64,000 nt of DNA from assembly GCA_025453495.1 (NCBI GenBank), contig JALOQM010000001.1, positions 90,732-154,731 of the forward strand. Reading direction: 5' to 3'. Positions within the stretch are counted from its first letter, which is position 1, and each line of letters starts with the position of its first letter. A program made the translations under genes and the position numbers. Shown one piece after another: positions 14,807 to 50,764 of this stretch. The stretch is from Minisyncoccota bacterium (GTDB taxonomy: Bacteria; Patescibacteriota; Minisyncoccia; Phycocordibacterales; UBA9973). The notes beneath the pieces were generated by a model, which was not told the origin of the DNA, ran no database searches, and saw only the letters and a program-made list of their open reading frames with translations.

Positions 14807-14812
14807 CAAAAA

Positions 14813-26538: not shown

Positions 26539-26901
26539 ATGAAGTATTGTATTTTCTTTTTTTCGATTACACTCTTTTCTTTCTTCTTCGCTGCACATAT
26601 CTCGTTTGCCGCACTCGGGACAATGCGCTCATTCGGCGGAAGAGTGATAAGTACGACGACACCAGGTATTACTTGCGGAGCACAATACGGCATGATGAGT
26701 ATTCAGCCTGTCGGAGTATTTCCAGCAACAGGCTATACCATCACTGCAACCACTCAGTCTGTTAATCCTGGAGGTTGGATTTTGGGACTCTACAACGCGA
26801 CACCCACAACTGGTATTTGTTATACCAACACTGCTCCACCAATCCCTGTGCCTTCATTTAACATACTTAAATTTAGCACCTCAAAACCTTCTCTTTTTTA
26901 A
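26539..26901 (+). CDS. Small secreted protein (120 aa), first gene of the T4SS-like operon
   Basis: Signal peptide MKYCIFFFSITLFSFFFAAHISFA; Gly/Thr-rich mature part with two Cys. Confidence 0.45.
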   Translation: MKYCIFFFSITLFSFFFAAHISFAALGTMRSFGGRVISTTTPGITCGAQYGMMSIQPVGVFPATGYTITATTQSVNPGGWILGLYNATPTTGICYTNTAPPIPVPSFNILKFSTSKPSLF

Positions 26902-30596: not shown

Positions 30597-33500
30597 ATGA
30601 ATCGTTTAAAACGAAAAATAAAATCTGGCTTTAAACACTTTGTGCTCACGCTAGTGCTTCTTGGCGTGACTTTTGCATCACTATTCTCTAGTCCGCTACA
30701 AGTACACGCAGCAGACAGTATGCAAGAGGTATTTCCAGCTACCTCTTCCAGTGATTCAGGAGTAGGCGATATTCTACCAATTGGTACTGTACCCTATAGC
30801 GGCAGGGATGGTGATGAATATATCATTAATGAAAATAATCTGAGTTTGACTCTTGAAGGTACACCAACTTCTCAGACAGTCACATTCAAAATGAATCTCC
30901 GCCTTGGTGGTGATTCTATACAGGGTATAAATCCAGGTAGAAATGGCAATAACACTCTTTACGACGAGGAAGAAGACCTTGGTAGTTGGCAATCAATTTA
31001 CGACACCAACAGTGATGGTAGTTGGCCACCTACTAGCGATAGTGGCAGAGGAATATGGCTTGATATTGGCACAAGTGTAGCTCCTGGACAAGCAAGTGTA
31101 GGATTTGGCTCACCTCCAATTGCACCTGTTATAAACGATCTTGTGCAAGAGTATGACCTCGCGACTCTCATTAACTTCAGGTACACATCGCAAGAAATTA
31201 ATATCACTGTAGGCACAGCAGCTGGACTTACCCCAAATACACAATACTACGCTCGCATTCGTGTTGAAGAATCAGATTCAACAGACAATGCCTACAGTAA
31301 GATTGTCGGATTCAAAACAGGTGCTGCTGGTGATACCGGAGAACAAAGCGAGGAAATCACAGCAAGCCTGACGCAATCTGAAATAAACAATGAAGGACAA
31401 CTTATTGATCTTCTTGACTGCGGTATAAGCACTATATTTACTGATTGTTTGGTTATAGGTTTCTATTACCTTTTTTATGTCCCATCATCATGGATTCTCC
31501 GTGCTGCTGGTTGGTTGCTTGACGCATTCGTTACATTTTCAATCAGTACCAAAGTATATAGTGATCCAAGTTTTATAACAGAAGGATGGAAGATCGTCCG
31601 TGATATAGCAAACATATTTTTCATTTTTGTCCTTGTATATATTGCATTTAAGCTAATACTTGGCGTTAGTGGCTCTGATGTGAAACGTATGCTGACCACT
31701 ATTATCATAGTCGGTGTCCTTATAAACTTCAGTCTATTTTTTACCAAAGTCGTTATCGACTCATCAAATATACTGGCACGCATTTTTTATCAACAGATCC
31801 AAATCACTGGTACTGAAGGTAGGGCAATCACAGATGCCTCAAAACTAGGTGTGGAAGAAAAAAGTCTCTCACAAGCTATTGTCAGTGGTGTAAGTGTAAA
31901 CAAAATGCTCTCTGATGAGACTATTACAAAACTACGTACTATGAATTGGCATAGTACTAGTTCAACATTTTTGATTATTATACTTGGCTTAATTGTCAAT
32001 CTCGTTACTGCTTGGACATTATTTATGAGTGCACTGTTTTTTATAGGGAGGATTGTCGCCTTGTGGGTAGCTATGATATTTTCAGCATTCGCCTTTATGT
32101 CAAACATTGCACCTGATTGGTTTAAACAAATTCCTATGATTAATTGGAGTAGTTGGTTCTCTGACCTTTTAAAGGTTTCCTTTTTAGCGCCGATCTTTCT
32201 GTTCTTTATTTATTTGATTATTGCATTTGTGAATAGCAAATTTCTCGATGGGTTACTGCTTAAAGCAAACGATTTTGATTTTACACAACTCCTCGTCTCT
32301 ATTATGCTCCAGTTTGGAATTTTAATTGTCCTTATACAAAAAGCAAAAGATATTGCTGAAAAACTTGCAGGAGACACAGCTGGTGCCGCTGTAAGTGCTA
32401 TAAAAAAAGGAGCTTCCGCTGTTGGTTCAGTAGTTGCTGGAGCAGGACTTGCTGTAGCAACTGCTGGAGCAGGATTTGCACTTCGTGGCACACTTGGCAG
32501 ATATGCCGCAGATCAGATGAATTCTGAAGAATACAAAAAGAAAATGGCCGAACGCATAGAAAAAGGTGGTGTTCGTGGTTGGCTTGCACAACGAGAACTC
32601 AAATCATATGAAAGTTTCAGTAATGCAAGTTTTGATGCTCGTGGATCAAAAAGATTTCAGAGTGCTCTCACTAGGTTTGGTGGTGCAACTGGTATAAATA
32701 TAAACACTGGAACTGGACACGAGGGAGGACATCTAAGTGATAAAGAAAAGAAAGAAAAAGAGCATCTTGCTATGGTAGAGCTCCTGCGATCAAAGAAAAG
32801 CGATGAGGAGTGGATGGAGTCACTCAGCGAGGATGATCCAGAAAAGAAAAAGTACATGGATGCAAAAAAGAAATACGAGACTGAGAAAGCTGTGTTTGAT
32901 GAGTATGAAAACAAATACAGAGAAGCATACGAGGCTGCAAAAAACTTGCCTGGCTTTAATCTTGACAAATTTAGAATTGACTATGAAAAAGCAAATGGAA
33001 AAGCACCAGATGCGCCAAAGGAAGTCAAAGCATCAGACTATGTTGATGTTTCAAAAATAAACAAAGAGCGCGAACTTAAATATGCAAGATACCTTAGAGA
33101 GAATACATTGCGCGCAAAGATAGAGCGTGCAACAGGTGATGGAGATCTGCTTGGCACGGAGCGTAGCGCACAATTGTCAGCAGCCAAAAAGATCGAAAGA
33201 GAAGCAGCAATGACTGAGAAATCATCAGTAAGTATGTCGAAACTTGCTCGCGCCGCAGAACAAGCAGAATACGATATTGGTCGCCTCAATAGAGAAATTG
33301 AAGCACATCAAACTAAATACTCTGGTACGCCTGAAGAAGTAAAACAAAAAATTACTCTTGAGATAAATACGGCAAAGAATGAACTGAAAGATATTGATCT
33401 AAATGCTGAAATGATGAAACAAAAATATGAAAGTGTAAAAAAGAAAGGTGGAAATACTGCGAGACAAGCTTATATTGCATGGCAAGCTGCTGAAGACAAG

Positions 33501-33632
33501 AGAAAAGAGAAACAAGAAGAAATCGCGGCTCTTGGTAGGGTAACAGAAGATCAGAAAAAACGTATAAGCGAACTTGAAAAGAAAGAAGGAGATCTTGAAA
33601 AGCTCCGAGAAAAGATAGACAAACTTAACTAG
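30597..33632 (+). CDS. VirB6/TrbL-like polytopic inner-membrane protein (1011 aa) with an N-terminal secreted domain and a K/E-rich coiled-coil C-terminal tail of about 450 aa
   Basis: Signal peptide; about 270-aa exodomain; at least 7 TM helices (e.g. IFFIFVLVYIAFKLILGV, TIIIVGVLINFSLFF, FLAPIFLFFIYLIIAF); Gly-zipper AGAGLAVATAGAGFA; C-terminal heptad-like KKKYE/EKKEGDLEK repeats. Confidence 0.55.
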   Translation: MNRLKRKIKSGFKHFVLTLVLLGVTFASLFSSPLQVHAADSMQEVFPATSSSDSGVGDILPIGTVPYSGRDGDEYIINENNLSLTLEGTPTSQTVTFKMNLRLGGDSIQGINPGRNGNNTLYDEEEDLGSWQSIYDTNSDGSWPPTSDSGRGIWLDIGTSVAPGQASVGFGSPPIAPVINDLVQEYDLATLINFRYTSQEINITVGTAAGLTPNTQYYARIRVEESDSTDNAYSKIVGFKTGAAGDTGEQSEEITASLTQSEINNEGQLIDLLDCGISTIFTDCLVIGFYYLFYVPSSWILRAAGWLLDAFVTFSISTKVYSDPSFITEGWKIVRDIANIFFIFVLVYIAFKLILGVSGSDVKRMLTTIIIVGVLINFSLFFTKVVIDSSNILARIFYQQIQITGTEGRAITDASKLGVEEKSLSQAIVSGVSVNKMLSDETITKLRTMNWHSTSSTFLIIILGLIVNLVTAWTLFMSALFFIGRIVALWVAMIFSAFAFMSNIAPDWFKQIPMINWSSWFSDLLKVSFLAPIFLFFIYLIIAFVNSKFLDGLLLKANDFDFTQLLVSIMLQFGILIVLIQKAKDIAEKLAGDTAGAAVSAIKKGASAVGSVVAGAGLAVATAGAGFALRGTLGRYAADQMNSEEYKKKMAERIEKGGVRGWLAQRELKSYESFSNASFDARGSKRFQSALTRFGGATGININTGTGHEGGHLSDKEKKEKEHLAMVELLRSKKSDEEWMESLSEDDPEKKKYMDAKKKYETEKAVFDEYENKYREAYEAAKNLPGFNLDKFRIDYEKANGKAPDAPKEVKASDYVDVSKINKERELKYARYLRENTLRAKIERATGDGDLLGTERSAQLSAAKKIEREAAMTEKSSVSMSKLARAAEQAEYDIGRLNREIEAHQTKYSGTPEEVKQKITLEINTAKNELKDIDLNAEMMKQKYESVKKKGGNTARQAYIAWQAAEDKRKEKQEEIAALGRVTEDQKKRISELEKKEGDLEKLREKIDKLN

Positions 33633-34339: not shown

Positions 34340-34404
34340 CAAAATGCCCGTAGTTTGCGGGCATTTTGCTTTGCCGGCAGTGGAAGATACCATATAATGA
34401 ATAT

Positions 34405-34842
34405 ATGCGATTTGAAGTGCCGCAATTCATTGACGTCGAAGACAAGATTTTCGGCCCATTCACTTTTAAGCAATTTTTATATCTTGCCGGAGGAGCGGGT
34501 ATCATCTATGTCCTTTGGAAACTTCTCCCAGCGATCATCGCCATACCACTCATACTTCCTGTCGCTGGACTCGCACTTGCTCTGACATTTTACAAAGTAA
34601 ATGGTCGACCATTCGCACAAACTATTGAGTCTTGGATGAAATACATCACTCAGGACAAACTCTATCTTTGGAAAAAAAGAGAGCGCAGAAAGACGCCAGA
34701 AAAAACACCAATGCCTGAGACAGAACAAGTACCAATTCAAGCACCACGTCTTTCTGGGAGTAAACTCAAAGACATCGCATGGAGTCTTGATGTTCTTGAT
34801 ATGCAAGAGAACGCAAAGCTCGATAAACTCGACACAAGATAA
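34405..34842 (+). CDS. PrgI-family-like small membrane protein of Gram-positive-type T4SS (functional VirB3 analogue)
   Basis: MRFEVPQFIDVEDKIFGPFTFKQFLYLAGGAGIIYV then a second TM helix; classic PrgI-family N-terminus and two-TM topology directly upstream of VirB4; start moved to ATG 34405 because the upstream in-frame Met lies inside the preceding hairpin. Confidence 0.6.
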   Translation: MRFEVPQFIDVEDKIFGPFTFKQFLYLAGGAGIIYVLWKLLPAIIAIPLILPVAGLALALTFYKVNGRPFAQTIESWMKYITQDKLYLWKKRERRKTPEKTPMPETEQVPIQAPRLSGSKLKDIAWSLDVLDMQENAKLDKLDTR

Positions 34843-34849
34843 CTAACAT

Positions 34850-35488
34850 ATGGCTATCAACGCAAAAGCATCACAAGAATTTGTACCTGTTAAAGAAGTG
34901 CGCGACGGTATCGTCGTCTTAAAAGATGGCAGCCTTCGTGCTATTTTGCTTGCTTCATCAATCAATTTGTCACTCAAGTCATATGAAGAACAACAGGCAG
35001 TTCTTTTACAATTTCAGAACTTTCTCAATTCAATAGATTTCTCAATGCAGATCGTCGTCCAATCTCGCCGACGTGACATGCGTCCATATCTTACACTACT
35101 TGAAAACAGAATGCGTGAACAAACTGAACCACTCTTGAAAGTGCAGACGCGCGAGTATATTGAATTCATCAAAAGCTTCACGGAGTCAGTGAGTATTATG
35201 ACAAAAAACTTTTTTATCATCGTTCCGTATTCATCAGTATCATTGCCTTCAGCTGAGGGTGTTATAAAAAAACTATTTGGTGGCACAAATAAAAAAACAG
35301 TAGCTCAAGAAGAATTAGCAAGCTTTGAAGAAAAACGTACACAACTTGAGCAAAGAGTTGGCACTATCACACAGGGACTTTCCCGTATGGGTGTCAGAAC
35401 AGCACAGCTTGGTACTGAGGAGGTTATAGAACTTTTCTATAAGATATTTAATCCGGGAGAAATAACTGCAAGTATTAAATCACAATAA
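34850..35488 (+). CDS. virB4: VirB4/ConE/PrgJ N-terminal domain encoded as a separate ORF (first part of a split VirB4)
   Basis: EFVPVKEVRDGIVVLKDGSLRAILLASSINLSLKSYEEQQAVLLQF matches the conserved Gram-positive VirB4 N-terminus; TAA stop 1 nt before the ATG of the ATPase ORF. Confidence 0.6.
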   Translation: MAINAKASQEFVPVKEVRDGIVVLKDGSLRAILLASSINLSLKSYEEQQAVLLQFQNFLNSIDFSMQIVVQSRRRDMRPYLTLLENRMREQTEPLLKVQTREYIEFIKSFTESVSIMTKNFFIIVPYSSVSLPSAEGVIKKLFGGTNKKTVAQEELASFEEKRTQLEQRVGTITQGLSRMGVRTAQLGTEEVIELFYKIFNPGEITASIKSQ

Positions 35489-35489
35489 T

Positions 35490-37538
35490 ATGGGCTTTTT
35501 TGATACATTGTTTGGGAATAAGTCAAAAGTAAAAGAAGCGGAAAAAACGCCAGTGCTTTCTGTCTTACCTGAACAAATCTATGAATCAGCAACCCTCGAA
35601 TTCCAAGACATCATCGCACCATCTGCTCTTAAAATAGAGTCGAAATCTCTAAATCTTGGCGAGAAAATAACACGCACGTTTTTTGTTATTTCCTATCCAA
35701 GATTCCTGACCGATAATTGGTTCTCACCGATAATAAACCTCGACAAGATTTTTGATGTATCAATCTTTATTCATCCTATAGATTCACAGAAATTGCTTCG
35801 CGATTTCCAGAAAAAAGTCGCAGAAGTTCAAAGTCAGATCAACACCAGAGAAGCAAAAGGACTTGTCAGAGATCCAATGCTTGATACTGCTTACCGTGAT
35901 CTTGAGGCGCTTAGAGACAATCTCCAACAGGCGCAAGAACGGGTCTTTGAGGTTGGACTGTATATCACAGTATATGCTGACAATGAAAATGAGCTTTTCA
36001 AAGTTGAAAATGAGATAAAAACTATCCTTGAATCACGCCTTATTTATCTAAAACCAGCACTCTTTCAGCAAGAAGAAGGATTTAAGAGTGTTTTACCGAT
36101 CGGTAATGATCTTCTCTCAGTACACCAAAAACTCAATACTGAGCCGCTTTCGTCTATTTTTCCATTTGTGTCCTTCGACCTCACAAGTGACAATGGGATC
36201 CTTTATGGCGTAAATCGACACAATGCGTCACTTGTTATCTTTGATCGTTTCTCCCTTGAAAACTATAATTCAATTATCTTTGCAAAGTCCGGAGCTGGAA
36301 AGTCGTATGCGACGAAGCTTGAGATTATCCGTACACTTATGTTTGATACTGACGTGATCGTTATCGACCCAGAACGTGAGTATGAGTATCTTGCTGAAGC
36401 AGTCGGTGGACGCTATTTCAATATAGCGCTTTCTTCTGATCACCACATCAACCCATTTGATCTACCAATTCCACGTGAAGATGAAACGACAGCTGACGTG
36501 CTTCGCTCAAACACAATCAATCTTGTCGGCTTGTTTCGTATCATGCTCGGCGGACTAACACCAGAAGAGGACGCGCTCATAGACAGAGCGATTACAGAAA
36601 CATATGCAATAAAAGATATTACTGCTGATTCAGATCTCAGTGACATAGAACCACCACTGTTGTCTGATTTTGAGCTTGTTCTTGCTGGTATGGAAGGAAG
36701 CGAAAAAGTACTCCAACGTCTGACAAAATATACTAAAGGATCTTGGTCAACCTTTATAAACCGCCCATCAAACGTCGACATCAACAAGAAATTTGTCGTC
36801 TTCTCTGTGCGCGACATGGAAGATGAGTTGAAGCCTGTCGCTATGTATATTGTCACGCACTTCATCTGGAACGAAGTGCGTAAATCAATAAAAAAGCGCC
36901 TACTTGTCGTCGACGAAGCATGGTGGATGATGAAATCAGAAGACACCGCTTCATTTCTCTACTCAATCGCAAAAAGAGGGCGTAAATACTATCTTGGCCT
37001 CTGTACTATCACCCAAGACGTTGGAGACTTCATGAGAAGTCCCTATGGTGTGCCTATTGTAACAAACTCTTCATTGCAGCTTCTCCTTAAACAATCACCG
37101 TCATCGATTGATCTTCTACAGAAGACATTTAATCTCACCGATGAAGAAAAATATCTTCTTCTTGAATCTGCCGTTGGTGAGGGCATCTTCTTTGCAGGAC
37201 TCAAGCATGTTGCCATAAAGATCATTGCCTCATACACCGAAGATCAAATTATTACCTCAGATCCATCACAAGTACTTGCTATAAAACGCGCTAAGGAAGA
37301 ATTTGAAGCATCTGAAACGCAAAGAGAACAAGCTATTGTTTCAGAGACAGAAATAGTAAGAGCGCAACCATTTGAAACAACAATAGCACCTAAAACAATA
37401 CCTGAGACAGAAGAAACAATAGACGCAGCTGAAATGACACCTGTCCGACAAAAAACAAAGGAAGAGTCACAACTTGATGAGCTTGCCATCCTTGATGAAG
37501 ACCTCAAAGAAATCGAAGAGGATATTGTCGGAAAATAA
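35490..37538 (+). CDS. virB4: VirB4/TrsE/CagE-family T4SS ATPase (central and ATPase domains)
   Basis: Walker A IIFAKSGAGKSYATK; HINPFD motif; Walker B LLVVDEAWWMM; RKYYLGLCTITQDVGDF motif. Confidence 0.85.
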   Translation: MGFFDTLFGNKSKVKEAEKTPVLSVLPEQIYESATLEFQDIIAPSALKIESKSLNLGEKITRTFFVISYPRFLTDNWFSPIINLDKIFDVSIFIHPIDSQKLLRDFQKKVAEVQSQINTREAKGLVRDPMLDTAYRDLEALRDNLQQAQERVFEVGLYITVYADNENELFKVENEIKTILESRLIYLKPALFQQEEGFKSVLPIGNDLLSVHQKLNTEPLSSIFPFVSFDLTSDNGILYGVNRHNASLVIFDRFSLENYNSIIFAKSGAGKSYATKLEIIRTLMFDTDVIVIDPEREYEYLAEAVGGRYFNIALSSDHHINPFDLPIPREDETTADVLRSNTINLVGLFRIMLGGLTPEEDALIDRAITETYAIKDITADSDLSDIEPPLLSDFELVLAGMEGSEKVLQRLTKYTKGSWSTFINRPSNVDINKKFVVFSVRDMEDELKPVAMYIVTHFIWNEVRKSIKKRLLVVDEAWWMMKSEDTASFLYSIAKRGRKYYLGLCTITQDVGDFMRSPYGVPIVTNSSLQLLLKQSPSSIDLLQKTFNLTDEEKYLLLESAVGEGIFFAGLKHVAIKIIASYTEDQIITSDPSQVLAIKRAKEEFEASETQREQAIVSETEIVRAQPFETTIAPKTIPETEETIDAAEMTPVRQKTKEESQLDELAILDEDLKEIEEDIVGK

Positions 37539-37570
37539 GAAAAGCAATGTTTTAATGGTATACTCTCTGT

Positions 37571-37996
37571 ATGGATGAGATATCAGCTAATACTACAAGC
37601 GATCAAATACAACCAAGTGCAACAGCACAAGACGATACTATAACACAAATGACAACCGTGAGCGCTATTGAAGAGGAGGTGGCGAAAGAACTCGGCACTG
37701 GTGATACAGTTGCTCCTGCAGATAGCTTACAAGACAAAGCAAAAAAACTTGCTACTGCTCGCCTTGCCCTTGAAGAGAAAATTATAGCTCTTGAGCGAGA
37801 TGTCAAAGCAAAGCTTGCGGCGCTAAAAGAGCTCAAAGCGGCACTAGAAGAAGAGATAGGGAAGATCAAAGAACTCAAAGAAACTGAAGGAAAAATCGAT
37901 ATACAGTTACAGAAAATCGATGATCTTGAGAAAAAGCGAGAAGAAATCGAGAATGAAATAAAAAACATCGAAGCCACTACAGCAGGTGTCTCATAA
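37571..37996 (+). CDS. Acidic coiled-coil protein (141 aa)
   Basis: ALEEKIIALERDVKAKLAALKELKAALEEEIGKIKELKE heptads. Confidence 0.45.
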   Translation: MDEISANTTSDQIQPSATAQDDTITQMTTVSAIEEEVAKELGTGDTVAPADSLQDKAKKLATARLALEEKIIALERDVKAKLAALKELKAALEEEIGKIKELKETEGKIDIQLQKIDDLEKKREEIENEIKNIEATTAGVS

Positions 37997-38022
37997 CTGC
38001 ATATAAGTGATATAATCAAAAC

Positions 38023-39033
38023 ATGCATCGTATCGGCAAAATCATACTCCTTGGCACACTCTTGATGGGCGTACTTTTGTTTTCCCCAGTTACTATAGAT
38101 GCACAATTTACTGGAAATACTGACATCACAGTAAATGTTAGTCCTACTATTCCAGGTCCAAATGAAGAAGTAGTGGTGACTCTCACTAGTCTTTCAGTAA
38201 ATCTTGATACAATTACTATTAGGTGGGAAATAAATGGAAAAACAGAACTTAGTGGTGTTGGAGAGAAAACGTTGACATTCAAAACTGGTGGAGTCGGATC
38301 AACAACGACAATTGAAGCTTCAATTGATGTTCCAGGTGTGCCGACCATAACCAAGCGTATAGTTATCCAACCACTAGCAATCGACCTGCTTTGGGAAGCA
38401 ACTGACTCGTATACACCTCCGTTTTACAAAGGAAAAGCACTGCTTCCGTCTGAAGGAGTAGTAAAGGTAGTTGCCATACCTGAGATTAAAACAACTAGCG
38501 GAAAGATGCTAAAACCATCTGATTTTACTTATACATGGAATCGCAATCAAAGGGAACAAGCCATTAACTCAGGAAATGGAAGAAATTATTTTTCTTTCCA
38601 GCAGAATTACCTGACAAATGAAGAAGTTATAACAGTAACAGCAAAATCAGTTTCTGGTAACTATCAAGCAACAAAGAAAGTAACAATTACACCTCGTGCC
38701 TCAAAAGTGTTATTCTATGAATTTGATCCAGCGCTTGGAGTCAGATATGAACGCATGCTTCAAGATATTACTGGTGTACAGGTAAATAAAGAAGGACTAA
38801 TTATTACCGCTGAGCCGTATTATTTTTCAGCAAATACTGCTGATACAGCACAGCTTTCATTTGAATGGAATGTGAACAATGAGGAAATTACGTCGCCAAC
38901 AAAAAAACATATGTTACCAGTACAAGTAACCACAAACGGCGTAGCAGAAATTCGAGTTAAGACAGAAGCTAGGATGAAATTATTCCAGGAGGCAACACGG
39001 TCGCTGTTCGTTAATCTTGAAGCAAATGAGTAA
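38023..39033 (+). CDS. Secreted beta-rich (Ig-like repeat) protein, 336 aa
   Basis: Signal/anchor MHRIGKIILLGTLLMGVLLFSPVTIDA; repeated VTxTxK beta-strand patterns. Confidence 0.5.
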   Translation: MHRIGKIILLGTLLMGVLLFSPVTIDAQFTGNTDITVNVSPTIPGPNEEVVVTLTSLSVNLDTITIRWEINGKTELSGVGEKTLTFKTGGVGSTTTIEASIDVPGVPTITKRIVIQPLAIDLLWEATDSYTPPFYKGKALLPSEGVVKVVAIPEIKTTSGKMLKPSDFTYTWNRNQREQAINSGNGRNYFSFQQNYLTNEEVITVTAKSVSGNYQATKKVTITPRASKVLFYEFDPALGVRYERMLQDITGVQVNKEGLIITAEPYYFSANTADTAQLSFEWNVNNEEITSPTKKHMLPVQVTTNGVAEIRVKTEARMKLFQEATRSLFVNLEANE

Positions 39034-40135
39034 TATATTTTTAGTAATTCGTATTCTAGCAATTAGCAGCTCTTTATTAAGTGTGCTTCTTTTCCAAACC
39101 GTAGATTTGGTTTTTGCTCAGGTGCCAACAAGTGACACTACTTCAATTGTAAAAGAAATTTGTGACAACAATATTGACGATAATGGCGATAATCTTGCAG
39201 ACGGAAAAGATCCTCAGTGTTATTTTCTTCTTGCTCCTCTCCCTGGTCTTTCAACAATCAATACAACACAAGGGCTTCCTGCATATCTAAAGGTATTATA
39301 TCGACTAGCAATTGGTATTGCTGGTGTTATCGCAGTAGTTATCATCGTATGGGCAGGTATAGAATATATGATGAGTGATGTTGTGTTTAAAAAAGATGAT
39401 GCAAAGCAACGAATTTGGAACGCACTCGGTGGTCTTGTCTTGCTTATCGGATCATTTGTATTACTCAATACAATCAACCCTGATCTTCTTAATCTAAATC
39501 CTCGGGTGCCCATTAAGGAAATCAATATTGAAGAGGAAGTAGGTGGCGATACTGGTGATGTATTTATCGCAAATTATACTTCTCCGTCAGGAATCTTCTA
39601 TCCACGAAGTGGTGGAGCATCACAAATAAGTCGCATTGTCAGCAGTCTTGATGGAAAAGTTACCTACCGCTTTGGCGGTAAAGGCGGCCCAGCACCGTAT
39701 CCAAGTGATACAAAGATGTGCGAAAATGGTCCGTGCAAAAATTACTGCCCACCGGGAACTGTTTGTCTTGATTGCTCTGGATTTATAAATTATATATATG
39801 TTGGTGCAGGTATTGCACCTATTAATGGCGGGACAGGAACGATATTTTCGTCATCTGAAAAAATTACAAAGATAGAAAACAGAATTATTAACGGAGAAAC
39901 TGCTACGTACGTCAACGATATAGCTCTTAAAACAGGGGATCTTTTAGGATGGGTGGCAAACGAAAATGGAAATAAGGTCGGACATGTTGTTATGTATATT
40001 GGTAATGGTCAAGCAGTAGAATCTACCTCAGGTGGGAATGGGAGAAGCTCTGGTAATGGGTTAAAAAAATTAGAGGTAACACAAAAGTATCTTCGAAAAG
40101 AAGTCCAGCTTTTGACAAGAGTTAAAAGACTATAA
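39017..40135 (+). CDS. Fusion of a pilin-like (VirB2/TrbC-like) two-helix hydrophobic hairpin with a C-terminal NlpC/P60 (C40) cell-wall peptidase
   Basis: Long signal peptide; hydrophobic hairpin LAIGIAGVIAVVIIVWAGIEY ... ALGGLVLLIGSFVLL; NlpC/P60 catalytic motifs CLDCSGFINYIY (Cys) and GDLLGW...GHVVMYIGNGQAVES (His); Asp-rich CDNNIDDNGDNLADGKD loop. Confidence 0.7.
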   Translation: MKQMSNIFLVIRILAISSSLLSVLLFQTVDLVFAQVPTSDTTSIVKEICDNNIDDNGDNLADGKDPQCYFLLAPLPGLSTINTTQGLPAYLKVLYRLAIGIAGVIAVVIIVWAGIEYMMSDVVFKKDDAKQRIWNALGGLVLLIGSFVLLNTINPDLLNLNPRVPIKEINIEEEVGGDTGDVFIANYTSPSGIFYPRSGGASQISRIVSSLDGKVTYRFGGKGGPAPYPSDTKMCENGPCKNYCPPGTVCLDCSGFINYIYVGAGIAPINGGTGTIFSSSEKITKIENRIINGETATYVNDIALKTGDLLGWVANENGNKVGHVVMYIGNGQAVESTSGGNGRSSGNGLKKLEVTQKYLRKEVQLLTRVKRL

Positions 40136-40144
40136 TTAATCATT

Positions 40145-41716
40145 ATGAACAAGCGACAGCGTCTTATACTTATCACAGCAATAGTGCTCCTTGCTCTATG
40201 TGGAGTCTTTGTTTTCTTTTCTATTAGCCAAAAAAGAGTTTCTCTTGAAACTCCAACACTGCGTGAGTTTTTTACTTTTGGAAGATCAAACCAAATTCAA
40301 ACAGAAAGGATGAGTGAACCATCTTCACAAAGAGGAGAAGAAATCGATTCAGAAGCAAGAGGAGGTTCTTTTTTTCTAAAACAAATTACGTCTCGTCCTG
40401 TTGCAGGGGCTGCGGCTGTCAGTGTATCGCGCAAAATAATTAATACAGAAATAAATACAACAGAAAATGAAACTACTGCGCAATGGACAAGAGACCTTAA
40501 GGAAGGTGACACTGGTGAAGATGTTAGAGAATTACAGATATTTTTGAACACCAATATAGAACCTAGTGGTGGTAGTGATAAAACAACCATTGTCGCTATA
40601 AAAGGTGCTGGATCTAAAGGAAATGAGACGACGTATTTTGGTACAGCAACTACAGCTGCGCTTCGTATTTTCCAAGAAAAATTCGAAATAGAAAGCACTG
40701 GGATTGCTGACGAAAGAACAAGAAAAAAAATATTTACACTACAACAAAGTATTCCAAAAGAAGAAAAAGTAACTGCAGTGCGATACGTTGATAAGAGAGA
40801 TGGGACTATTTTTCAAACATTTATAGATACTATTGAAGAAAAAAAAATATCTGGGACCAAGATTCCGAAAATACATGAAGCGTATTTTGGCAAAGATGCC
40901 CTAACTACACTTTTGCGTCTTGTGGAAGAAGATGGTGTAACTATTGCAACCTACGCTGGTACACTTCCAAAGATTATTGAGGGAGGGGATTCAATTACAA
41001 ACATGAGAGGTTCTTTTATAGAAAGAAATATAGAATCACTTTCTTTTTCTCCTGATAAAAGTAAATTCTTTTACCTTGTGAGTTCTGGTCAATTTACAAA
41101 TGGGATCATTGCAAGCGCAACAGGTGGATCAAAGATACAAGTATTTTCATCTCCATTTAGTGAATGGTTACCTCAATGGGTAGATGATCGTACTATCGCA
41201 CTAACAACAAAACCAGCAGCATCTTTTGGTGGTTATCTCTATACGCTTGATACAAAAACCAAAGAATTCAAAAAAGTGATGAGTGAGGTACCGGGACTTA
41301 CCACCCTCTATAGTCCGAATGGTAAAAAAGTACTATACTCTCGGGCAACAAAAAATAGAAACAGCTTTCTTACTGCGATATACGATACAGAAACAAAAAA
41401 ATCTACTGATCTTGATGTGCACACACTTCCTGAAAAATGCGTATGGTCTAATGATAGTATTACACTCTACTGCTCTGTACCTAAATATATAAACGGAGGA
41501 GAGTACCCGGACGTGTGGTATCAAGGAATACAATCGTTTAGTGATATGATCTGGCAAATAAATACAAAAGACGGAATTCTAAAAAGAGTGTCTGATCCTT
41601 TCCAAGAAGCAGGAATCGAAATTGATGGAATACATCTTTTCCTTGATACTGAAGAATCAAATCTTTTTCTCACCAATAAAAATGATTCTTCTCTATGGAC
41701 ACTCACACTCAACTAA
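40145..41716 (+). CDS. Membrane-anchored protein with a peptidoglycan-binding domain (PG_binding_1-like) and a C-terminal TolB-like beta-propeller
   Basis: TM helix LILITAIVLLALCGVFVFF; GEDVRELQIFLN...TTAALRIFQEKFEI PG-binding helix pair; YSPNGKKVLYSR / TAIYDTETKK propeller blades. Confidence 0.6.
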   Translation: MNKRQRLILITAIVLLALCGVFVFFSISQKRVSLETPTLREFFTFGRSNQIQTERMSEPSSQRGEEIDSEARGGSFFLKQITSRPVAGAAAVSVSRKIINTEINTTENETTAQWTRDLKEGDTGEDVRELQIFLNTNIEPSGGSDKTTIVAIKGAGSKGNETTYFGTATTAALRIFQEKFEIESTGIADERTRKKIFTLQQSIPKEEKVTAVRYVDKRDGTIFQTFIDTIEEKKISGTKIPKIHEAYFGKDALTTLLRLVEEDGVTIATYAGTLPKIIEGGDSITNMRGSFIERNIESLSFSPDKSKFFYLVSSGQFTNGIIASATGGSKIQVFSSPFSEWLPQWVDDRTIALTTKPAASFGGYLYTLDTKTKEFKKVMSEVPGLTTLYSPNGKKVLYSRATKNRNSFLTAIYDTETKKSTDLDVHTLPEKCVWSNDSITLYCSVPKYINGGEYPDVWYQGIQSFSDMIWQINTKDGILKRVSDPFQEAGIEIDGIHLFLDTEESNLFLTNKNDSSLWTLTLN

Positions 41717-41719
41717 GCA

Positions 41720-42226
41720 CTATTGTGAAGTATAAGAAATTATAATTCTTCTTTGCTCACCTTCTCCTACAGATTCAGTCTTGATATATTCTCTTTCTGA
41801 TAAAAATTCATGAACAATACGCCGCTCAAAAGAGTTCATCGGGTCAGTTGAGATAGTTGAAGCAAAAAACTTTGCTCGTTCAGCGAGCATGTGTGCCACG
41901 CTTTGTATTTCTTCGATTCTTTTTTGCTGATACCCGTCAATATCAATAATCAGATTTTCTTCTAGTGCCTTATCTTTTCTCATATACTGAACCTGCTTTT
42001 TGTTGATGATCTTTTTTACTAGGTGATTAATACAGGCAAGTACTTCTCCATGCTTGCCGATTAAAGAACGAGGATCAGACACAGTAACACAATAGAGCAA
42101 CGTATGCTCTTTGAGACTATGGGGCACGGGCACTACCTCAACACTAGTAGTAGGAAAAGATAGTTTTTCAAAGAAATCACTGATAGTGCTTCGTATTTCC
42201 TTCTGTGCATCCATGTAACTACTCAA
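41720..42226 (-). CDS. jag: Jag/KhpB RNA-binding protein (KH plus R3H domains)
   Basis: R3H motif ERRIVHEFLSER; conserved position downstream of yidC. Confidence 0.8.
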   Translation of the reverse strand: MSSYMDAQKEIRSTISDFFEKLSFPTTSVEVVPVPHSLKEHTLLYCVTVSDPRSLIGKHGEVLACINHLVKKIINKKQVQYMRKDKALEENLIIDIDGYQQKRIEEIQSVAHMLAERAKFFASTISTDPMNSFERRIVHEFLSEREYIKTESVGEGEQRRIIISYTSQ

Positions 42227-43001
42227 TAACTTTTGCTTGTACAGACACAGTGTTTCCTTCTGTCTTTTTTGCTAACCTGCGACGTATTATGATTTCTTGA
42301 AAAATAGTGAAAATATTACTTGTTGCCCAATAAAGTGCTACTGCTCCAGCAACTTGATATGAAATAATTCCGACGAAAATAGGAAGTACATACTGCATTT
42401 GCATTTGCATACTTTTAGCAAACTGTTTTTGAAAAGATCCGTCATTCGTTTGTTGCTTTTGTTTGGGAAGTGTTAATCTAGCCTGTATAAACTGGGTGAC
42501 AGCTGCCAAAATAGCAAGAACAATACTTTTCCCACTCATATCAAGAAATCCTAGAAATTGTGTATTTATAACAGGCGGAAAGGAGACACCCTGATACAAA
42601 AGACCAGCATCCAAAGAAAGTGCTCCAAGAAAAACCTTATAGAGAGCAAAAATGACAGGAAGTTGGAGAAGTACTAGTAGGCATCCTGAAAACGGATTAA
42701 CTTTATATTGTTTATATAATTCAAACGTTCTTCTAGATTGCTCAAGCTTATCAGTATATTTTTCTTTTATTGCATCAATCTCTGGCTGCAGGTTGCGAAG
42801 ATGTATTTGGCTTTCAATCGATTTTTTAGCTATAGGATACAAGATAAAACGAACGAGTATTGTTAAAAGAATAACAGCAACACCAATATCTCCTCCAGGG
42901 ATTAAAGATACCAAAAAAGCAAGAGCGTTGTAGAGCGGTTCGTAAAAAATATTATTCCAAAGAGTAGTAATCATTTGCCTATTGTATCGAAAAAAGAGCA
43001 A
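42219..43001 (-). CDS. yidC: Membrane protein insertase YidC (short monoderm type)
   Basis: 5-TM YidC/Oxa1 core, conserved synteny with yidD-rnpA-rpmH. Confidence 0.85.
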   Translation of the reverse strand: MLFFRYNRQMITTLWNNIFYEPLYNALAFLVSLIPGGDIGVAVILLTILVRFILYPIAKKSIESQIHLRNLQPEIDAIKEKYTDKLEQSRRTFELYKQYKVNPFSGCLLVLLQLPVIFALYKVFLGALSLDAGLLYQGVSFPPVINTQFLGFLDMSGKSIVLAILAAVTQFIQARLTLPKQKQQTNDGSFQKQFAKSMQMQMQYVLPIFVGIISYQVAGAVALYWATSNIFTIFQEIIIRRRLAKKTEGNTVSVQAKVIE

Positions 43002-43015
43002 AAATCAATCCCATT

Positions 43016-43237
43016 CTATACTGGGTCAATGTGGTTTTTTTGCCATGGATGACATCGTGAAATCCTGCGGACTGCACGCAGTGTTCCTGAAATCCATCCA
43101 TATTTCTTAATTGCGTCAATTGCATACATTGAACAGGTCGGGTAAAAGACACAGTTGTCTTTTAGGATGCCAAGTTTTTTTAAAACACCAACACTATATT
43201 GATACATTCGTATACACCCGATAAGTAAATACTTCAT
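43016..43237 (-). CDS. yidD: Membrane protein insertion efficiency factor YidD
   Basis: YQ...CRF/YPTCSMYA Cys motif of the YidD family. Confidence 0.85.
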   Translation of the reverse strand: MKYLLIGCIRMYQYSVGVLKKLGILKDNCVFYPTCSMYAIDAIKKYGWISGTLRAVRRISRCHPWQKNHIDPV

Positions 43238-43239
43238 TT

Positions 43240-46680: not shown

Positions 46681-46941
46681 ATGGAATATCACAGACTTAC
46701 TACGTTTTTAGAAAAGATACAGTCGGTTATTTCAGCAAAATACCTAGAAAAAAAGCATATTATAGAGAGTGTGTATCTTTATGCAAAGATTGAAATAAAA
46801 GAAGAAAATATAGAGGTGCAAGGTAACATACTTAGGATAAAAATAAGTGGCTCGCAAAAAGCGGCACTTATTCTCCGTAAAAAAGAAATACTTGAAAAAA
46901 TAAATCTCTCAAGAAAAAACACTTTAGTAAATATTCTTTAA
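46681..46941 (+). CDS. DUF721/DciA-like small protein downstream of dnaN
   Basis: 86 aa; VQGNILRIKISGSQKAALILRKKEILEKINL resembles the DUF721 motif; conserved position after dnaN. Confidence 0.45.
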   Translation: MEYHRLTTFLEKIQSVISAKYLEKKHIIESVYLYAKIEIKEENIEVQGNILRIKISGSQKAALILRKKEILEKINLSRKNTLVNIL

Positions 46942-49490
46942 TTACGTGATGGGTCAACAAAGAATGAACTCTCAACTTCAGCACTATTGTATACAACATC
47001 ATAAGCGACAACTCGTATATTATTGTTTCCTTCTGTAATACCAAAATTAGAAGGAGTAAATGAAAAAACAAATGGCTGGTTTTTGACACTACCCACAAAT
47101 TGCCCATTTATAAAGATATCTCCTTTTACCAATGGATATCTCCCGGAACTAGTAATGGCAATAGTTACCCGTTCGTTGGGAAGATAGGAAGTACCGACTA
47201 CAGGAGAAGTAATCGCAATTTTCGGGACTGTTTCGAGTGTGTGTATATCATCAAAAGTTGTTGGTATATCTGATGCTCGGATGATTGGGTATCGAGCTCT
47301 ATTCTGTTCCCACCATTGTCTAATAGGGAATTCCCAATTTCTAAACTGAGGATCTTTTTCTGGTTCTTCAGGTCTTGCACCAAGTGGGTCATTTTTGTTT
47401 ACCCAATACAAAATTGAGCGGACATCGGTAATAACTTTTTCTTCAAGTGTTTCCTTTGGAGTAAAACTAGTAGCACGTTTCCCGGAAATTGTGTCAACAA
47501 GAAAACTTTCTCCACCAAGCCAAACACCTCTGATAACTGGTTTAAGTTTTTCTAAGTCATTTGGTATAACCGGCGGCTCAAATTCTTCTTCTGGAAGCAA
47601 TGGAAGCACTTCTTCCATAAATGCACGCCACAATGGAGCTATAATAGTTCCTGATGTTTTTTTGACCATTGGTGAATTGTCATTATTTCCAGCCCAAGTA
47701 CCTACTACAAGCGATGGGGTATACCCAACTGTCCATACATCGCGGTAATCGTTGGTAGTACCTGTTTTTGCCGCAACAGCACGTTCTCTAAAATAGAGTG
47801 GTGAGTTCGCCCCAAATAGGGGAGTTCTCGCGGTGTTATCAGAAAGAATATCAGAGATCATAAGTGCAACATTTTTTGGAAGTACTGTCGCCTCGGCGAT
47901 GATTGCTTCTTCTAGTACACTACCATTTGCATTTTCTATTTTTAATATAGAGCGATATGGATTTCTTACGCCACCATTTGCAAAAACACCATACGCGGAA
48001 GTGATATCAAGTAGTGATACTTCACCACCACCAAGCACAAGAGTCAGTCCATAGCGCGAAGGATCAGTAAGTGTTTTTATTCCCATATCCTTTGCTGTTC
48101 GCAACGCATCCTTTATACCGACAAGATACAGTGCTTTGACTGCCGGGACGTTTATTGACTGTGCGAGCGCATTGCGTAGGTTTATTGGTCCACGATAGAG
48201 GCCATCATAGTTTTCTGGCATATAGCAGTCATTTTGATTGTAGCCAGGGTAGGCGCGACCAAGTGGATCACAAGTAGTTTGGAATTCTGTCGGCAGATCA
48301 AAGAGCACAGTATTTGGCGTATATCCTTTTTCAAATGCTGCTGCGTAGACGAATGGTTTAAATGCTGAGCCAGGCTGTCGCTTTGCAAGGGCAATATTGT
48401 AATTCCCATCAATTTCCTTATCGAAATAATCTTTTGAACCAACCATTGTCAAAATGTCTCCATTTTTGGGGTCAATAGCAACAAGAGAAGCGTTTGAAGC
48501 ATTAAATTTTTCTTTGTTCAGCGTCGCATATTCTTTAACAACCGCTTCACCTTTTTGTTGCATTGTGTAATCAAGTGTTGTTGTGACCTTTAGACCACCA
48601 GTTTCTAAAGTATCTTTTCCGTATTTGCTCTCAAGATATTCTTTTATAAAAAACACAAAATGTGGTGCTTTGATGCTGCTTGGTGACTGTGGAAGGAATG
48701 CAACAGCTTCTGCTTGTGCGATTTCATTCTCTGTTTTTGTGATAAATCTAAGAGCTTCCATGCGATCAAGTACTAGATTTTTTCTCTTATCAAGATCTGC
48801 ACGATTCTTTCCATAAGGAGAATAGTACGTAGGGAGTTGTGGAATCGCGGCAAGATAGGCTGCTTCGGCAAGAGTAAGGTCTTTGGCAGCTTTGCCAAAG
48901 TATTGTCGTGATGCTTCTTGTATACCGTATATAGTGCCACCATATGGAGCCTCGTTTAGATATAAAGCAAGAATATCGTCTTTGCTCATTGAGGCATCGA
49001 GCTTTATAGCAAGTACCCATTCTTTTGTTTTTCGCGCAATTGTTTTTTCTGGAGACAACAGTGTCATTTTTATGACTTGTTGGGTAATGGTTGAGCCACC
49101 TTGTGTTGAGCCACCCGGGATAGTATTTGAGAGCACTGCGCGTATGATTGAAGTAATGCGGATACCATGGTGGCTATAAAATTCCGCATCTTCAATCGCA
49201 ATAGTAGCGTTTTTTGAATACTGGCTTATTTCCGAAAGTGGTACAACAGTTCTCTTTTTATCTTGATGTAGATCATAGAGAAGTATCTCTCCTGTACGAT
49301 CATATATTTTTGTTGATCCTTTTGTATTGATATCCTCAAGTACCTTAAAATCAGGGATTTTTACCGTCGCAATCCAGACAATAAGAGTTCCAATGAGTAA
49401 AACACCAATACTCATAAAAAGAAGGGCGAGGTTTGTCGCAGTGCTTCGGTGTTTGTGCCAGTGTTTCTTGAGTTTTGTATTAAGCTTCAT
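46938..49490 (-). CDS. mrcA: Bifunctional class A penicillin-binding protein (glycosyltransferase plus transpeptidase) with a C-terminal extension of about 200 aa
   Basis: GT51 motifs (EDAEFYSHHGI, GGSTITQQ); transpeptidase SAFK, SIN and KTGT motifs; N-terminal TM; start chosen at MKLNTKLKK. Confidence 0.9.
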   Translation of the reverse strand: MKLNTKLKKHWHKHRSTATNLALLFMSIGVLLIGTLIVWIATVKIPDFKVLEDINTKGSTKIYDRTGEILLYDLHQDKKRTVVPLSEISQYSKNATIAIEDAEFYSHHGIRITSIIRAVLSNTIPGGSTQGGSTITQQVIKMTLLSPEKTIARKTKEWVLAIKLDASMSKDDILALYLNEAPYGGTIYGIQEASRQYFGKAAKDLTLAEAAYLAAIPQLPTYYSPYGKNRADLDKRKNLVLDRMEALRFITKTENEIAQAEAVAFLPQSPSSIKAPHFVFFIKEYLESKYGKDTLETGGLKVTTTLDYTMQQKGEAVVKEYATLNKEKFNASNASLVAIDPKNGDILTMVGSKDYFDKEIDGNYNIALAKRQPGSAFKPFVYAAAFEKGYTPNTVLFDLPTEFQTTCDPLGRAYPGYNQNDCYMPENYDGLYRGPINLRNALAQSINVPAVKALYLVGIKDALRTAKDMGIKTLTDPSRYGLTLVLGGGEVSLLDITSAYGVFANGGVRNPYRSILKIENANGSVLEEAIIAEATVLPKNVALMISDILSDNTARTPLFGANSPLYFRERAVAAKTGTTNDYRDVWTVGYTPSLVVGTWAGNNDNSPMVKKTSGTIIAPLWRAFMEEVLPLLPEEEFEPPVIPNDLEKLKPVIRGVWLGGESFLVDTISGKRATSFTPKETLEEKVITDVRSILYWVNKNDPLGARPEEPEKDPQFRNWEFPIRQWWEQNRARYPIIRASDIPTTFDDIHTLETVPKIAITSPVVGTSYLPNERVTIAITSSGRYPLVKGDIFINGQFVGSVKNQPFVFSFTPSNFGITEGNNNIRVVAYDVVYNSAEVESSFFVDPSRN

Positions 49491-49558
49491 CTTTGCATAA
49501 TACCATGGAATACCTAGACGAACGGACAAATTCGTACAGTTGTGGTACAGTACTACGT

Positions 49559-50764
49559 ATGAAAAATACGCGCAAAGAGGGCGAAAAACTGTGGGCATTT
49601 CTGGAGAGGGGGGTTGCCTCTGTATATCCAAGCAAGGAATATGTCACCGCGCGTTTGCTGGAAGGCAAAAAACTAAAAGTGTATTTTGGTATAGATCCGA
49701 CCGGGCCAACATTGCATCTTGGCCATATGATTGGAATTAAAAAACTGGCTGAATTTCAAGAGCTTGGGCACTCTGTTGTTCTCCTCATCGGTGACTTTAC
49801 TGCGATGATTGGAGATCCGACGGACAAAGGAGCGACACGCAAACAACTTTCACGGAAGGAAATTCTCACAAACATGAAGCTGTATAAAAAACAGGCCTCG
49901 GCACTTCTGCGGTTTTCCGGAAAAAACAAGGCAGAGATCGCGTATAACTCAAAATGGCTCGGCAAAATGAAATTCGGAGATGTGCTTGATCTTGCATCAA
50001 AGATGACCGTTCAGCAAATGCTCGAACGCGATATGTTTGAGCGCCGAATAGAAGAGGGGAAGCCGATACATATACACGAGTTTCTCTATCCGCTCATGCA
50101 AGGATATGACTCGGTTGCCATGCAAATAGACGGAGAAATCGGCGGCAACGACCAGACATTTAATATGCTCGCCGGCAGAACACTTGAAAAACTTCTGCTT
50201 GATAAAGAAAAATTTGTCATTGCGACGAAGTTACTTGAAGACGCAACAGGCAAGAAGATGGGAAAAACCGAGGGCAATATGGTAAGCCTTATCGATACAC
50301 CAAAAGACATGTTTGGAAAGATAATGAGCTGGACCGACGGATTGATTATCCCAGCATTTGAACTGTGCACCATGGCAACAATGGAAGACATTGAAGCAAT
50401 CAAAGAGTCTTTGGTAAACGGTGCGAATCCGCGCGATGCCAAAGCGCGACTCGCCCGAGAGATTGTCTCCTTGTATCACGGAGAAAAAAAGGGAAAAGAA
50501 GCGGAAGACGCTTTCTTCCAGACGTTTCAGAGGGGAGAAGTGCCAACCGATATCCAGACTGAGAAAGCAAAAAAAGACGAGCAACTTGTCGCCGTATTGT
50601 TGCGCTTGGGGGTTGTTTCGTCAAAAAGTGAATGGCGGAGACTTGTAGAGGAGGGTGCAGTGACACATCTTGAAAGTGATACTAAAATAACTGATCCACA
50701 AGCGAGCCCTGAACTAGGAACCTACAAAATCGGCAAAAAACGCTTCCTAAAGATTACTAAATAA
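49559..50764 (+). CDS. tyrS: Tyrosine--tRNA ligase
   Basis: GIDPTGPTLHLGH (HIGH), KMGKTEGN (KMSKS), C-terminal S4-like domain; the upstream alternative start at 49493 would put the two divergent gene starts (tyrS 49493, PBP 49490) only a few nt apart. Confidence 0.85.
   Translation: MKNTRKEGEKLWAFLERGVASVYPSKEYVTARLLEGKKLKVYFGIDPTGPTLHLGHMIGIKKLAEFQELGHSVVLLIGDFTAMIGDPTDKGATRKQLSRKEILTNMKLYKKQASALLRFSGKNKAEIAYNSKWLGKMKFGDVLDLASKMTVQQMLERDMFERRIEEGKPIHIHEFLYPLMQGYDSVAMQIDGEIGGNDQTFNMLAGRTLEKLLLDKEKFVIATKLLEDATGKKMGKTEGNMVSLIDTPKDMFGKIMSWTDGLIIPAFELCTMATMEDIEAIKESLVNGANPRDAKARLAREIVSLYHGEKKGKEAEDAFFQTFQRGEVPTDIQTEKAKKDEQLVAVLLRLGVVSSKSEWRRLVEEGAVTHLESDTKITDPQASPELGTYKIGKKRFLKITK

Follow-up and report, generated by a model that had tools for sequence, protein, structure and literature searches.

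Why should a pilin-like membrane hairpin and a peptidoglycan-cleaving enzyme be joined in a single polypeptide, and why should the gene for such a protein lie within a type IV secretion system (T4SS) operon? The question is raised by a gene found in a 64,000-nucleotide (64 kb) stretch of contig JALOQM010000001.1 from a Minisyncoccota bacterium, hereafter the window, a member of the Patescibacteria or candidate phyla radiation (CPR). The fusion gene bears on what the T4SS does in Patescibacteria: the single species examined so far cannot grow epibiotically without this system, which as a rule has neither a relaxase nor a coupling protein and differs from other monoderm T4SSs in having VirB2-like 'pilins' (PMC10633639; PMC12102498; PMC12857230). 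The bacterium is of the Paceibacteria type, and the gene belongs to a conserved operon with the order VirB4, Ig-like protein, fusion protein and propeller protein. Judging from sequence and structural models, we assign a probability of about 0.55 to the fusion protein being a membrane-anchored extracytoplasmic NlpC/P60 cysteine peptidase that opens the cell wall for a chromosomal monoderm-type T4SS, equivalent in this respect to VirB1, PrgK and CwlT. The initial annotation of the locus was correct in its observation, and its interpretation largely holds, although the fusion is a common CPR design rather than an oddity of one genome.

The enzymatic part of the protein is clear. Pfam family NLPC_P60 (PF00877; MEROPS C40) matches residues 216-341 with 33.8 bits against a cutoff of 23 (residues are numbered from TTG 39017 unless ATG numbering is indicated), and the protein contains both motifs by which the initial annotation recognised the peptidase, CLDCSGFINYIY (residues 250-261) and GHVVMYIGNGQAVES (residues 322-336). 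A family profile of 49 homologues, on which the conservation counts given here are also based, aligns to the DL-endopeptidase CwlO over the DCS and GHV motifs (E = 1.7e-9), with Cys253 falling on the DCSSF motif of CwlO. Asp252, Cys253 and His323 are invariant (49/49), so the catalytic Cys and His, whose conservation in orthologues had been proposed as a check, are kept throughout; residue 335, twelve positions after the His, is polar in every sequence. A cysteine-rich insert of ~18 residues preceding the catalytic Cys is an extra feature of the fusion family. In the AlphaFold 2 (AF2) model of the fusion protein (mean predicted local distance difference test score, pLDDT, 85), confidence is mostly 87-95 for the hairpin and ~97 for the peptidase, and the top Foldseek match of the whole model in the PDB is the NlpC/P60 protein 3h41 (probability 1.00, E = 1.7e-3), this search being dominated by the NlpC/P60 domain and otherwise uninformative. 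Collectively, the C-terminal domain has an intact Cys253-His323-Glu335 triad and the papain-like alpha+beta fold of NlpC/P60 enzymes. The idea of a pseudo-enzyme resembling RipD was ruled out, the triad being intact and invariant in the 49 homologues.

The N-terminal part was initially described as a long signal peptide followed by two hydrophobic helices separated by a short loop, in a VirB2/TrbC-pilin-like arrangement. A Kyte-Doolittle scan reveals exactly three hydrophobic segments (residues 4-34, ~93-118 and ~135-155), in agreement with that layout; the loop is basic, and the AF2 helices span residues 83-116 and 120-150 (ATG numbering). The Pfam model T4SS_pilin (PF18895) matches residues 94-145 with 23.8 bits, just below its gathering threshold of 26.6, and many homologues carry a precomputed PF18895 annotation. 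A hidden Markov model (HMM) trained on 35 stand-alone CPR pilins of 100-230 aa, with the query left out, matches residues ~79-176 with 110 bits (E = 3e-33); the pilin resemblance therefore reflects homology rather than chance. The reciprocal profile search recovers stand-alone PF18895 proteins with E-values down to 5e-25. Stand-alone and fused forms share the signal peptide, the YxLLAPLPG motif (the YxLLAPLPGL stretch of the fusion protein forms a beta-hairpin in the full-length AF2 model only), a GGxxY motif, a basic loop with AKxRI, and LNTINPxL. Together with the HMM match, these shared motifs identify the hairpin as a real member of the CPR VirB2-like pilin lineage, and NCBIfam yields a sub-threshold match to the Mollicutes family 'pilin-like conjugal transfer protein'. 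The fusion protein departs from the small-pilin format in having 372 aa, of which ~215 form the C-terminal linker and enzyme.

The connection to classical conjugative pilins is weak. The Pfam scan found no match of the fusion protein to PF04956, the classical VirB2/TrbC family, and the stand-alone pilin profile reached the VirB2 chains of Agrobacterium tumefaciens among PDB sequences only at non-significant E-values of 2.8-4.8. A Foldseek search of the PDB with an AF2 model of the hairpin alone returned nothing at E <= 1e-3 and no conjugative pilin, its hits being generic helical hairpins (ING4, NDH subunits, designed coils); fold comparison therefore cannot decide VirB2 membership.

Several features predict on which side of the membrane the peptidase resides. 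The segments flanking the hairpin are acidic, whereas the inter-helix loop carries conserved Lys/Arg residues (Lys126, with Lys in 38 of the 49 homologues; Lys130, with Lys or Arg in 42; and Arg132, with Arg or Lys in 27). Under the positive-inside rule, hydropathy and these charges predict an arrangement in which the N-terminus is out, the loop in and the C-terminus out. The cysteine pairs 195/263, 235/240 and 244/250 are each always present or absent together across the 49 homologues, as would be anticipated if they formed disulfides in an exported domain; this likewise places the peptidase outside the cell. A cytoplasmic peptidase, named in the initial annotation as the outcome at odds with its proposal, is thus the opposite of what the charge pattern and cysteine pairs predict. 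The pair 195/263 (nt 39599-39601 and 39803-39805) is found in 47 of the 49 homologues, and both of its members are lost in the window protein, where Tyr and Gly occupy these positions, as do Phe and Gly in the closest relative, P0002; this suggests the coordinated loss of one disulfide in the lineage of the window gene. DsbA-type genes adjoin family members in loci L005 and L006. The acidic ectodomain between the signal peptide and the hairpin is a variable position, growing to at least 300 aa of FN3/Ig-like sequence in homologues, and its loop (39152-39220) has a sub-threshold match to NCBIfam acid_disulf_rpt. As a side observation, acidic, possibly Ca-binding motifs of the DxDxDG type occur in this loop, CDNNIDDNGDNLADGKDPQC, and in a 313-aa membrane protein encoded at 26913-27854 (DRDKDGVADWEE...TDSDGNGISD).

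From this layout, a working scheme can be proposed. The protein would be exported by the Sec pathway and lose its signal peptide; the hairpin would then span the cytoplasmic membrane, its basic loop on the inner face and its two termini on the outer, and the linker of ~45 residues would give the peptidase access to the wall. Being homologous to pilins, the anchor may be recruited where the T4SS takes up its pilin (VirB6/VirB3-VirB4), and recruitment of this kind would confine cross-link cleavage to the machine. The same linker bears on a different scheme, in which the protein is a precursor cleaved after helix 2, near NTINPDL, to release a free VirB2-like pilin and a soluble NlpC/P60 hydrolase. 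Stand-alone pilins do end shortly after the same LNTINP.L motif, the low-confidence acidic linker follows directly, and such cleavage would parallel the C-terminal trimming of TrbC-/VirB2-type pilins known from RP4 TrbC. However, the linker is poorly conserved among homologues and we identified neither a protease gene nor a recognisable cleavage motif; we regard this scheme as improbable.

The genomic context argues for a T4SS-associated wall opener. The operon encodes, in order, a VirB6-like protein, a 229-aa protein, PrgI, a TrsD-like protein, VirB4, a coiled-coil protein, a probably Ig-like protein, the fusion protein and a possibly beta-propeller-like protein, with dnaA nearby. PrgI, the TrsD-like N-terminal part of VirB4 and the VirB4 of the CD1110 type confirm the T4SS operon proposed initially, and the fusion gene, third downstream of VirB4, occupies the position in a monoderm-type system where VirB1/PrgK-type hydrolases are expected.

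This arrangement is not peculiar to the window. A word-indexed search retrieved 92 relatives, many with both PF18895 and PF00877, and all matches with a named source were labelled Patescibacteria/CPR; an exhaustive profile search over 1.84 billion cluster representatives (50% identity) yielded 1,592 proteins at E <= 1e-30, and for most of the 150 best of them (E <= 1e-84) hairpin and peptidase fall within one matched stretch. The fusion is therefore a large conserved Patescibacteria family, common rather than rare: the initial description of it as atypical holds against classical T4SSs and fails within Patescibacteria, where the family comprises ~1,600 clusters at 50% identity. For genomic context, we used 26 species-representative loci from a degenerate-pattern scan, which do not constitute a random sample (~23 after removal of duplicate contigs) and whose titles include Nomurabacteria, Paceibacterota, Uhrbacteria, Falkowbacteria, Buchananbacteria and others. 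The synteny of the window, including the Ig-like and propeller partners, is reproduced in six of the 26 loci (L001/L007, L004, L008, L010, L011, L027) and partly in L009, both flanking genes of the fusion being homologous across the syntenic loci; in three further loci VirB4 lies 6-9 kb away. Altogether, VirB4 is found within 10 kb in nine of the 26 loci, with P ~1e-8 if a chance frequency of ~3% is assumed. A rough neighbour-joining tree groups those members that are embedded in T4SS operons, the window gene among them, in a single clade. Several metagenome-assembled genomes (MAGs) with the CPR-type gene (L012, L016, L022-L024, L026, L029, L030) bear the titles 'uncultured Gammaproteobacteria' or 'Saccharibacteria' in automated third-party-annotation assemblies. 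L003 and L024 are the same contig, and as the genes around the fusion in these two look CPR-like, such labels may be wrong.

The hairpin is not restricted to NlpC/P60 enzymes. It is found N-terminal to SLT, 3D, Peptidase_M23, glucosaminidase, M15_4, VanY, YkuD and Amidase_5 domains, and the genes often occur in tandem arrays of two to five, most with differing wall enzymes and with some members lacking a recognisable cargo domain (Table 1). The hairpin is thus a general carrier of cell-wall enzymes in CPR. By analogy, the arrays resemble the multi-domain content of Gram-positive T4SS hydrolases (LytM, SLT and CHAP in PrgK) distributed over several pilin-anchored proteins. A second hairpin paralogue, of 615 aa, is encoded at 13154-15001 of the Nomurabacteria T4SS locus L001, two genes beyond the pilin-NlpC/P60 fusion; as a whole it matches the fusion-family HMM (E < 1e-30), although no Pfam family matches its C-terminal part.

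These arrays also bear on a rather unlikely but far-reaching alternative, namely that the hairpin becomes part of a pilus or short conduit of the T4SS, whether as a minor, a tip or the only subunit, with the peptidase outside the filament digesting the host wall at the epibiotic contact. The hairpin is a full-length homologue of stand-alone CPR pilins, down to YxLLAPLPG, LNTINP and the basic loop residues, and both termini of the pilin face outward in the solved conjugative pili (F- and T-pilus). Moreover, two HMMs, one from stand-alone pilins and one from fused forms, and a hydropathy screen applied to all six-frame open reading frames (ORFs) of at least 40 aa detected no second pilin in the window, and within 10 kb the syntenic loci showed none beyond further fusion-type genes. 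The small secreted protein encoded at 26539..26901 is not pilin-like and was ruled out as a second pilin. The tandem arrays, with their complementary wall-cleaving specificities, recall the VirB2 arrays already described (PMC12102498), and Southlakia epibionticum cannot grow epibiotically without its pilin arrays and T4SS (PMC10633639). On the other hand, a VirB2-type helical filament would probably be crowded by a domain of ~20 kDa on each of its subunits, VirB2-type pilins with large cargo have no known precedent, no CPR T4SS pilus was reported in the literature searched, neither Foldseek nor the PDB profile search gave a significant match to solved pilins, and a major pilin may lie elsewhere on the 251 kb contig or in the rest of the genome, the screen having covered the 64 kb window. 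In its general form, which we hold to be similarly doubtful, the proposal would be that CPR bacteria possess modular VirB2-type pilins whose hairpin, a polymerising or channel-docking carrier, brings a kit of wall enzymes (NlpC/P60, M23, SLT, 3D, glucosaminidase, M15) to the tip of the T4SS conduit or along its length to breach the host wall, the fusion protein being the only pilin of the window lineage; if true, this would explain why the T4SS and the 'pilins' are essential for the epibiotic lifestyle.

The same distribution could also be read in housekeeping terms, with the hairpin serving as the usual CPR anchor for wall enzymes of growth and division, and the proximity to T4SS genes reflecting clustering of envelope genes near the origin. 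Most family members lie away from VirB4, beside ftsQ-like (POTRA) and xerC-like genes, radA or dsbA; an L,D-transpeptidase (YkuD) and a carboxypeptidase (VanY) are among the cargo; CPR genomes, small as they are, need some autolysins; and a class A penicillin-binding protein (PBP) is encoded nearby. We nevertheless find this explanation unlikely. The order VirB4, Ig-like protein, fusion and propeller is kept in the clade of the window gene across differently labelled MAGs (Nomurabacteria, Paceibacterota, auto-labelled), the proximity to VirB4 across the family is far above chance, and the anchor is homologous to a T4SS-specific protein family.

A wall-opening role in the T4SS, exerted by an enzyme of the DL-endopeptidase type, remains the reading we favour, with several considerations weighing against it. 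In 17 of the 26 species-representative loci no VirB4 is found within 10 kb, so exclusive dedication to the T4SS has good support only in the clade of the window gene. Cargo domains such as YkuD and VanY remodel the wall rather than breach it, so the hairpin may be a general anchor. A tblastn search with the peptidase part against 72,556 PLSDB plasmids produced no match at E <= 1e-3, and in view of this lack of BLAST-level relatives on plasmids, descent from conjugative hydrolases is not shown. Finally, that the hairpin docks on VirB6 or VirB4 is purely conjectural.

The gene model itself requires comment, as three start codons compete. Public databases contain an identical protein, from a 251 kb contig of a 'Candidatus Pacebacteria/Paceibacterota' MAG. 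JGI places its start at the in-frame ATG 39026, which yields 369 aa, whereas the NCBI entry MCU0660123.1 ('NlpC/P60 family protein') begins at GTG 39122 and comprises 337 aa without the signal peptide. An N-terminal hydrophobic signal-like segment is common to all aligned homologues, and the NCBI start is for this reason probably too short; ATG 39026 is the probable true start. The upstream gene ends at 39033, so the 17-nt overlap noted initially is correct from TTG and shortens to 8 nt from ATG.

Table 1. Coordinates of the fusion gene, its parts, the neighbouring T4SS genes and tandem hairpin arrays at other loci.
Feature	Sequence	Position	Strand	Details and basis
Pilin hairpin-NlpC/P60 fusion gene	Window	39017..40135	+	372 aa from TTG 39017
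Signal peptide or N-terminal membrane segment	Window	39017..39121	+	Residues 1-35, hydrophobic core 7-34, cleavage-type site between VFA and Q; from hydropathy
Short acidic ectodomain, Cys49...Cys68 loop CDNNIDDNGDNLADGKDPQC	Window	39122..39220	+	Sequence, hydropathy
Conserved YxLLAPLPGL motif	Window	39221..39250	+	Also begins the mature part of stand-alone CPR pilins
Hydrophobic helix 1 of pilin-like hairpin	Window	39281..39370	+	Residues ~89-118
Short basic inter-helix loop SDVVFKKDDAKQRIW	Window	39371..39418	+	Residues 119-134; predicted cytoplasmic face
Hydrophobic helix 2 of hairpin	Window	39419..39481	+	Residues 135-155; ends in conserved LNTINPDL
Acidic linker, low model confidence	Window	39482..39616	+	Residues ~156-200, ~45 residues, pLDDT 50-60
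NlpC/P60 (C40) peptidase domain with Cys-rich insert	Window	39617..40132	+	Cys pairs 235/240, 244/250; Pfam, model, alignment
Catalytic Cys253 codon TGC	Window	39773..39775	+	DCSGF motif; alignment of 49 homologues
Catalytic His323 codon CAT	Window	39983..39985	+	GHVVMYIGNG; alignment of 49 homologues
Glu335 codon, third polar residue (His+12)	Window	40019..40021	+	E31/D15/N2/Q1 of 49
VirB6-like polytopic membrane protein	Window	30597..33632	+	1011 aa; position and hydrophobic segments only, no family model matched
PrgI (VirB3-like)	Window	34366..34842	+	PF12666, 44.5 bits
TrsD/TraC-like protein, N-terminal part of VirB4	Window	34850..35488	+	212 aa; family match
VirB4-like ATPase, CD1110 (monoderm) type	Window	35490..37538	+	682 aa; 381 bits
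Coiled-coil protein	Window	37571..37996	+	141 aa; ORF and sequence
Secreted protein, conserved upstream partner	Window	38023..39033	+	336 aa; synteny, weak sub-threshold Pfam matches
Conserved downstream partner	Window	40145..41716	+	523 aa; N-terminal transmembrane segment, PG_binding_1, conserved C-terminal domain
Tandem hairpin array NlpC/P60, 3D, M23	L028	9830-13034		
Tandem hairpin array NlpC/P60, SLT	L012	9587-12187		
Tandem hairpin array glucosaminidase, NlpC/P60	L005	3033-5621		
Tandem hairpin array, five genes in a row	L021	3-5448		
Tandem hairpin array	L002	8876-12151		

Among the neighbours of the fusion gene, the VirB6-like protein has an N-terminal ectodomain and a C-terminal coiled coil, with counterparts at the same position in the syntenic loci. 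VirB4 is split (34850-37538) into the TrsD/TraC-like protein and the ATPase, with one base between the two genes, and the split is found in all syntenic loci. The sequence and the weak sub-threshold Pfam matches of the upstream partner suggest a beta-rich, Ig-like fold, and the C-terminal domain of the downstream partner is possibly propeller-like, a name that goes back to a faint PD40 match in its L006 counterpart. A promoter and terminator scan of 33000-42500 gave matches not above shuffled controls and hence no evidence of internal transcription units. At 41720-46589, the operon abuts the gene set of the replication origin, in which jag, yidC and rnpA are encoded on the minus strand and dnaA and dnaN lie beyond them. 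Pfam matched neither a relaxase nor a coupling protein among the window ORFs scanned, a set from which about a dozen ORFs of at least 200 aa were left out. The window thus matches the published picture of Patescibacteria T4SSs as monoderm-type, origin-proximal and mostly devoid of a relaxase, the origin-proximal location having been reported for Paceibacteria and Microgenomatia (PMC12102498). A mobile-element origin was rejected as far as the window shows, the flanks being of housekeeping nature (jag, yidC, rnpA, dnaA, dnaN, ksgA, uvrD, nusA, polA) and the scanned ORFs including no match to a relaxase or coupling protein.

Other wall- and envelope-related genes are encoded in the window. The class A PBP (46938..49631) implies that the organism synthesises its own wall. 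A conventional secreted wall hydrolase of LysM-LysM-Peptidase_M23 architecture, without a pilin hairpin, is encoded just outside the T4SS block (22314-23654, minus strand). ComEC and a PilB-type T2SSE ATPase are encoded at 5050-6549 and 53711-55408, both on the minus strand, so competence/type IV pilus machinery coexists with the T4SS.

In a large part of the radiation, then, pilin module and peptidoglycan-cleaving enzyme form one polypeptide. Some of the fusions lie inside the T4SS operon, some in arrays of complementary specificities, and surveys have counted the two components apart. The Patescibacteria T4SS survey, which reported VirB1 homologues associated with VirB4 in Paceibacteria, scored VirB1 and VirB2 separately without mention of a fusion, yet in its Table S3 KKT24894.1, whose gene is the second one after VirB4, appears as a 'VirB2' that carries Pfam PF00877 (PMC12102498). 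Pilin-hydrolase fusions were not discussed in the literature we searched, a search that was incomplete, so that this absence is no proof. The label 'NlpC/P60 family protein', sometimes combined with a truncated start, hides the T4SS link in annotation pipelines. The fusion offers a testable idea for what the 'pilins' do, namely that they steer wall hydrolysis towards the machine or towards the host.

How does the fusion protein compare with known systems? In concept, it is matched by modular type IVa pilins, for example those of Streptococcus sanguinis, in which a functional globular domain is grafted onto a filament-subunit module; the pilin fold and machinery are unrelated, being those of type IV pili and not of a T4SS, and no equivalent for VirB2-type pilins was described in the literature searched. 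The housekeeping enzymes CwlO and LytF of Bacillus, RipA and RipB of Mycobacterium and MepS/Spr of Escherichia coli share the catalytic domain and triad spacing; they rely on LysM, coiled-coil, SH3 or lipoprotein targeting, whereas the fusion protein uses a pilin hairpin and has, in addition, the Cys-rich insert. The classical pilins VirB2, TrbC and TraA (PF04956) have in common with it the signal peptide, the two helices with a short basic loop and the T4SS linkage, and some relatives of the fusion match PF04956 weakly.

The stand-alone CPR pilins (PF18895), such as SEML1_0014-0019 of S. epibionticum, have a homologous hairpin, the same motifs and T4SS association. These proteins, of ~100-230 aa, lack an enzyme; in the fusion protein, an N-terminal insert adds 35 aa, and linker plus peptidase extend the C-terminus by ~215 aa. 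In S. epibionticum, the pilin array consists of six short separate genes and is essential (PMC10633639), as are the hydrolases SEML1_0006 and SEML1_0007 encoded beside virB4 (PMC10633639 supplements), which are separate proteins without PF18895 annotation. Hydrolases and pilins being separate there, the fused design represents a lineage-specific alternative.

The remaining counterparts are the VirB1-like hydrolases of Gram-positive bacteria, PrgK (pCF10), TraG (pIP501), CwlT (ICEBs1) and the Orf14/CD419-type NlpC/P60 proteins, for which a CD419 profile link has been published (PMC12102498). Like the fusion gene, their genes reside in T4SS operons near VirB4, and the proteins share an N-terminal membrane anchor, an extracellular peptidoglycan-cleaving part with a papain-like Cys peptidase of the CHAP or NlpC/P60 type and a monoderm, MPF-FATA-type context. 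The fusion protein differs in having one catalytic domain and no glycosidase, in showing no BLAST-level similarity to the plasmid-borne hydrolases and in its anchor, which is a signal peptide plus a two-helix VirB2-homologous hairpin in place of a single transmembrane segment.

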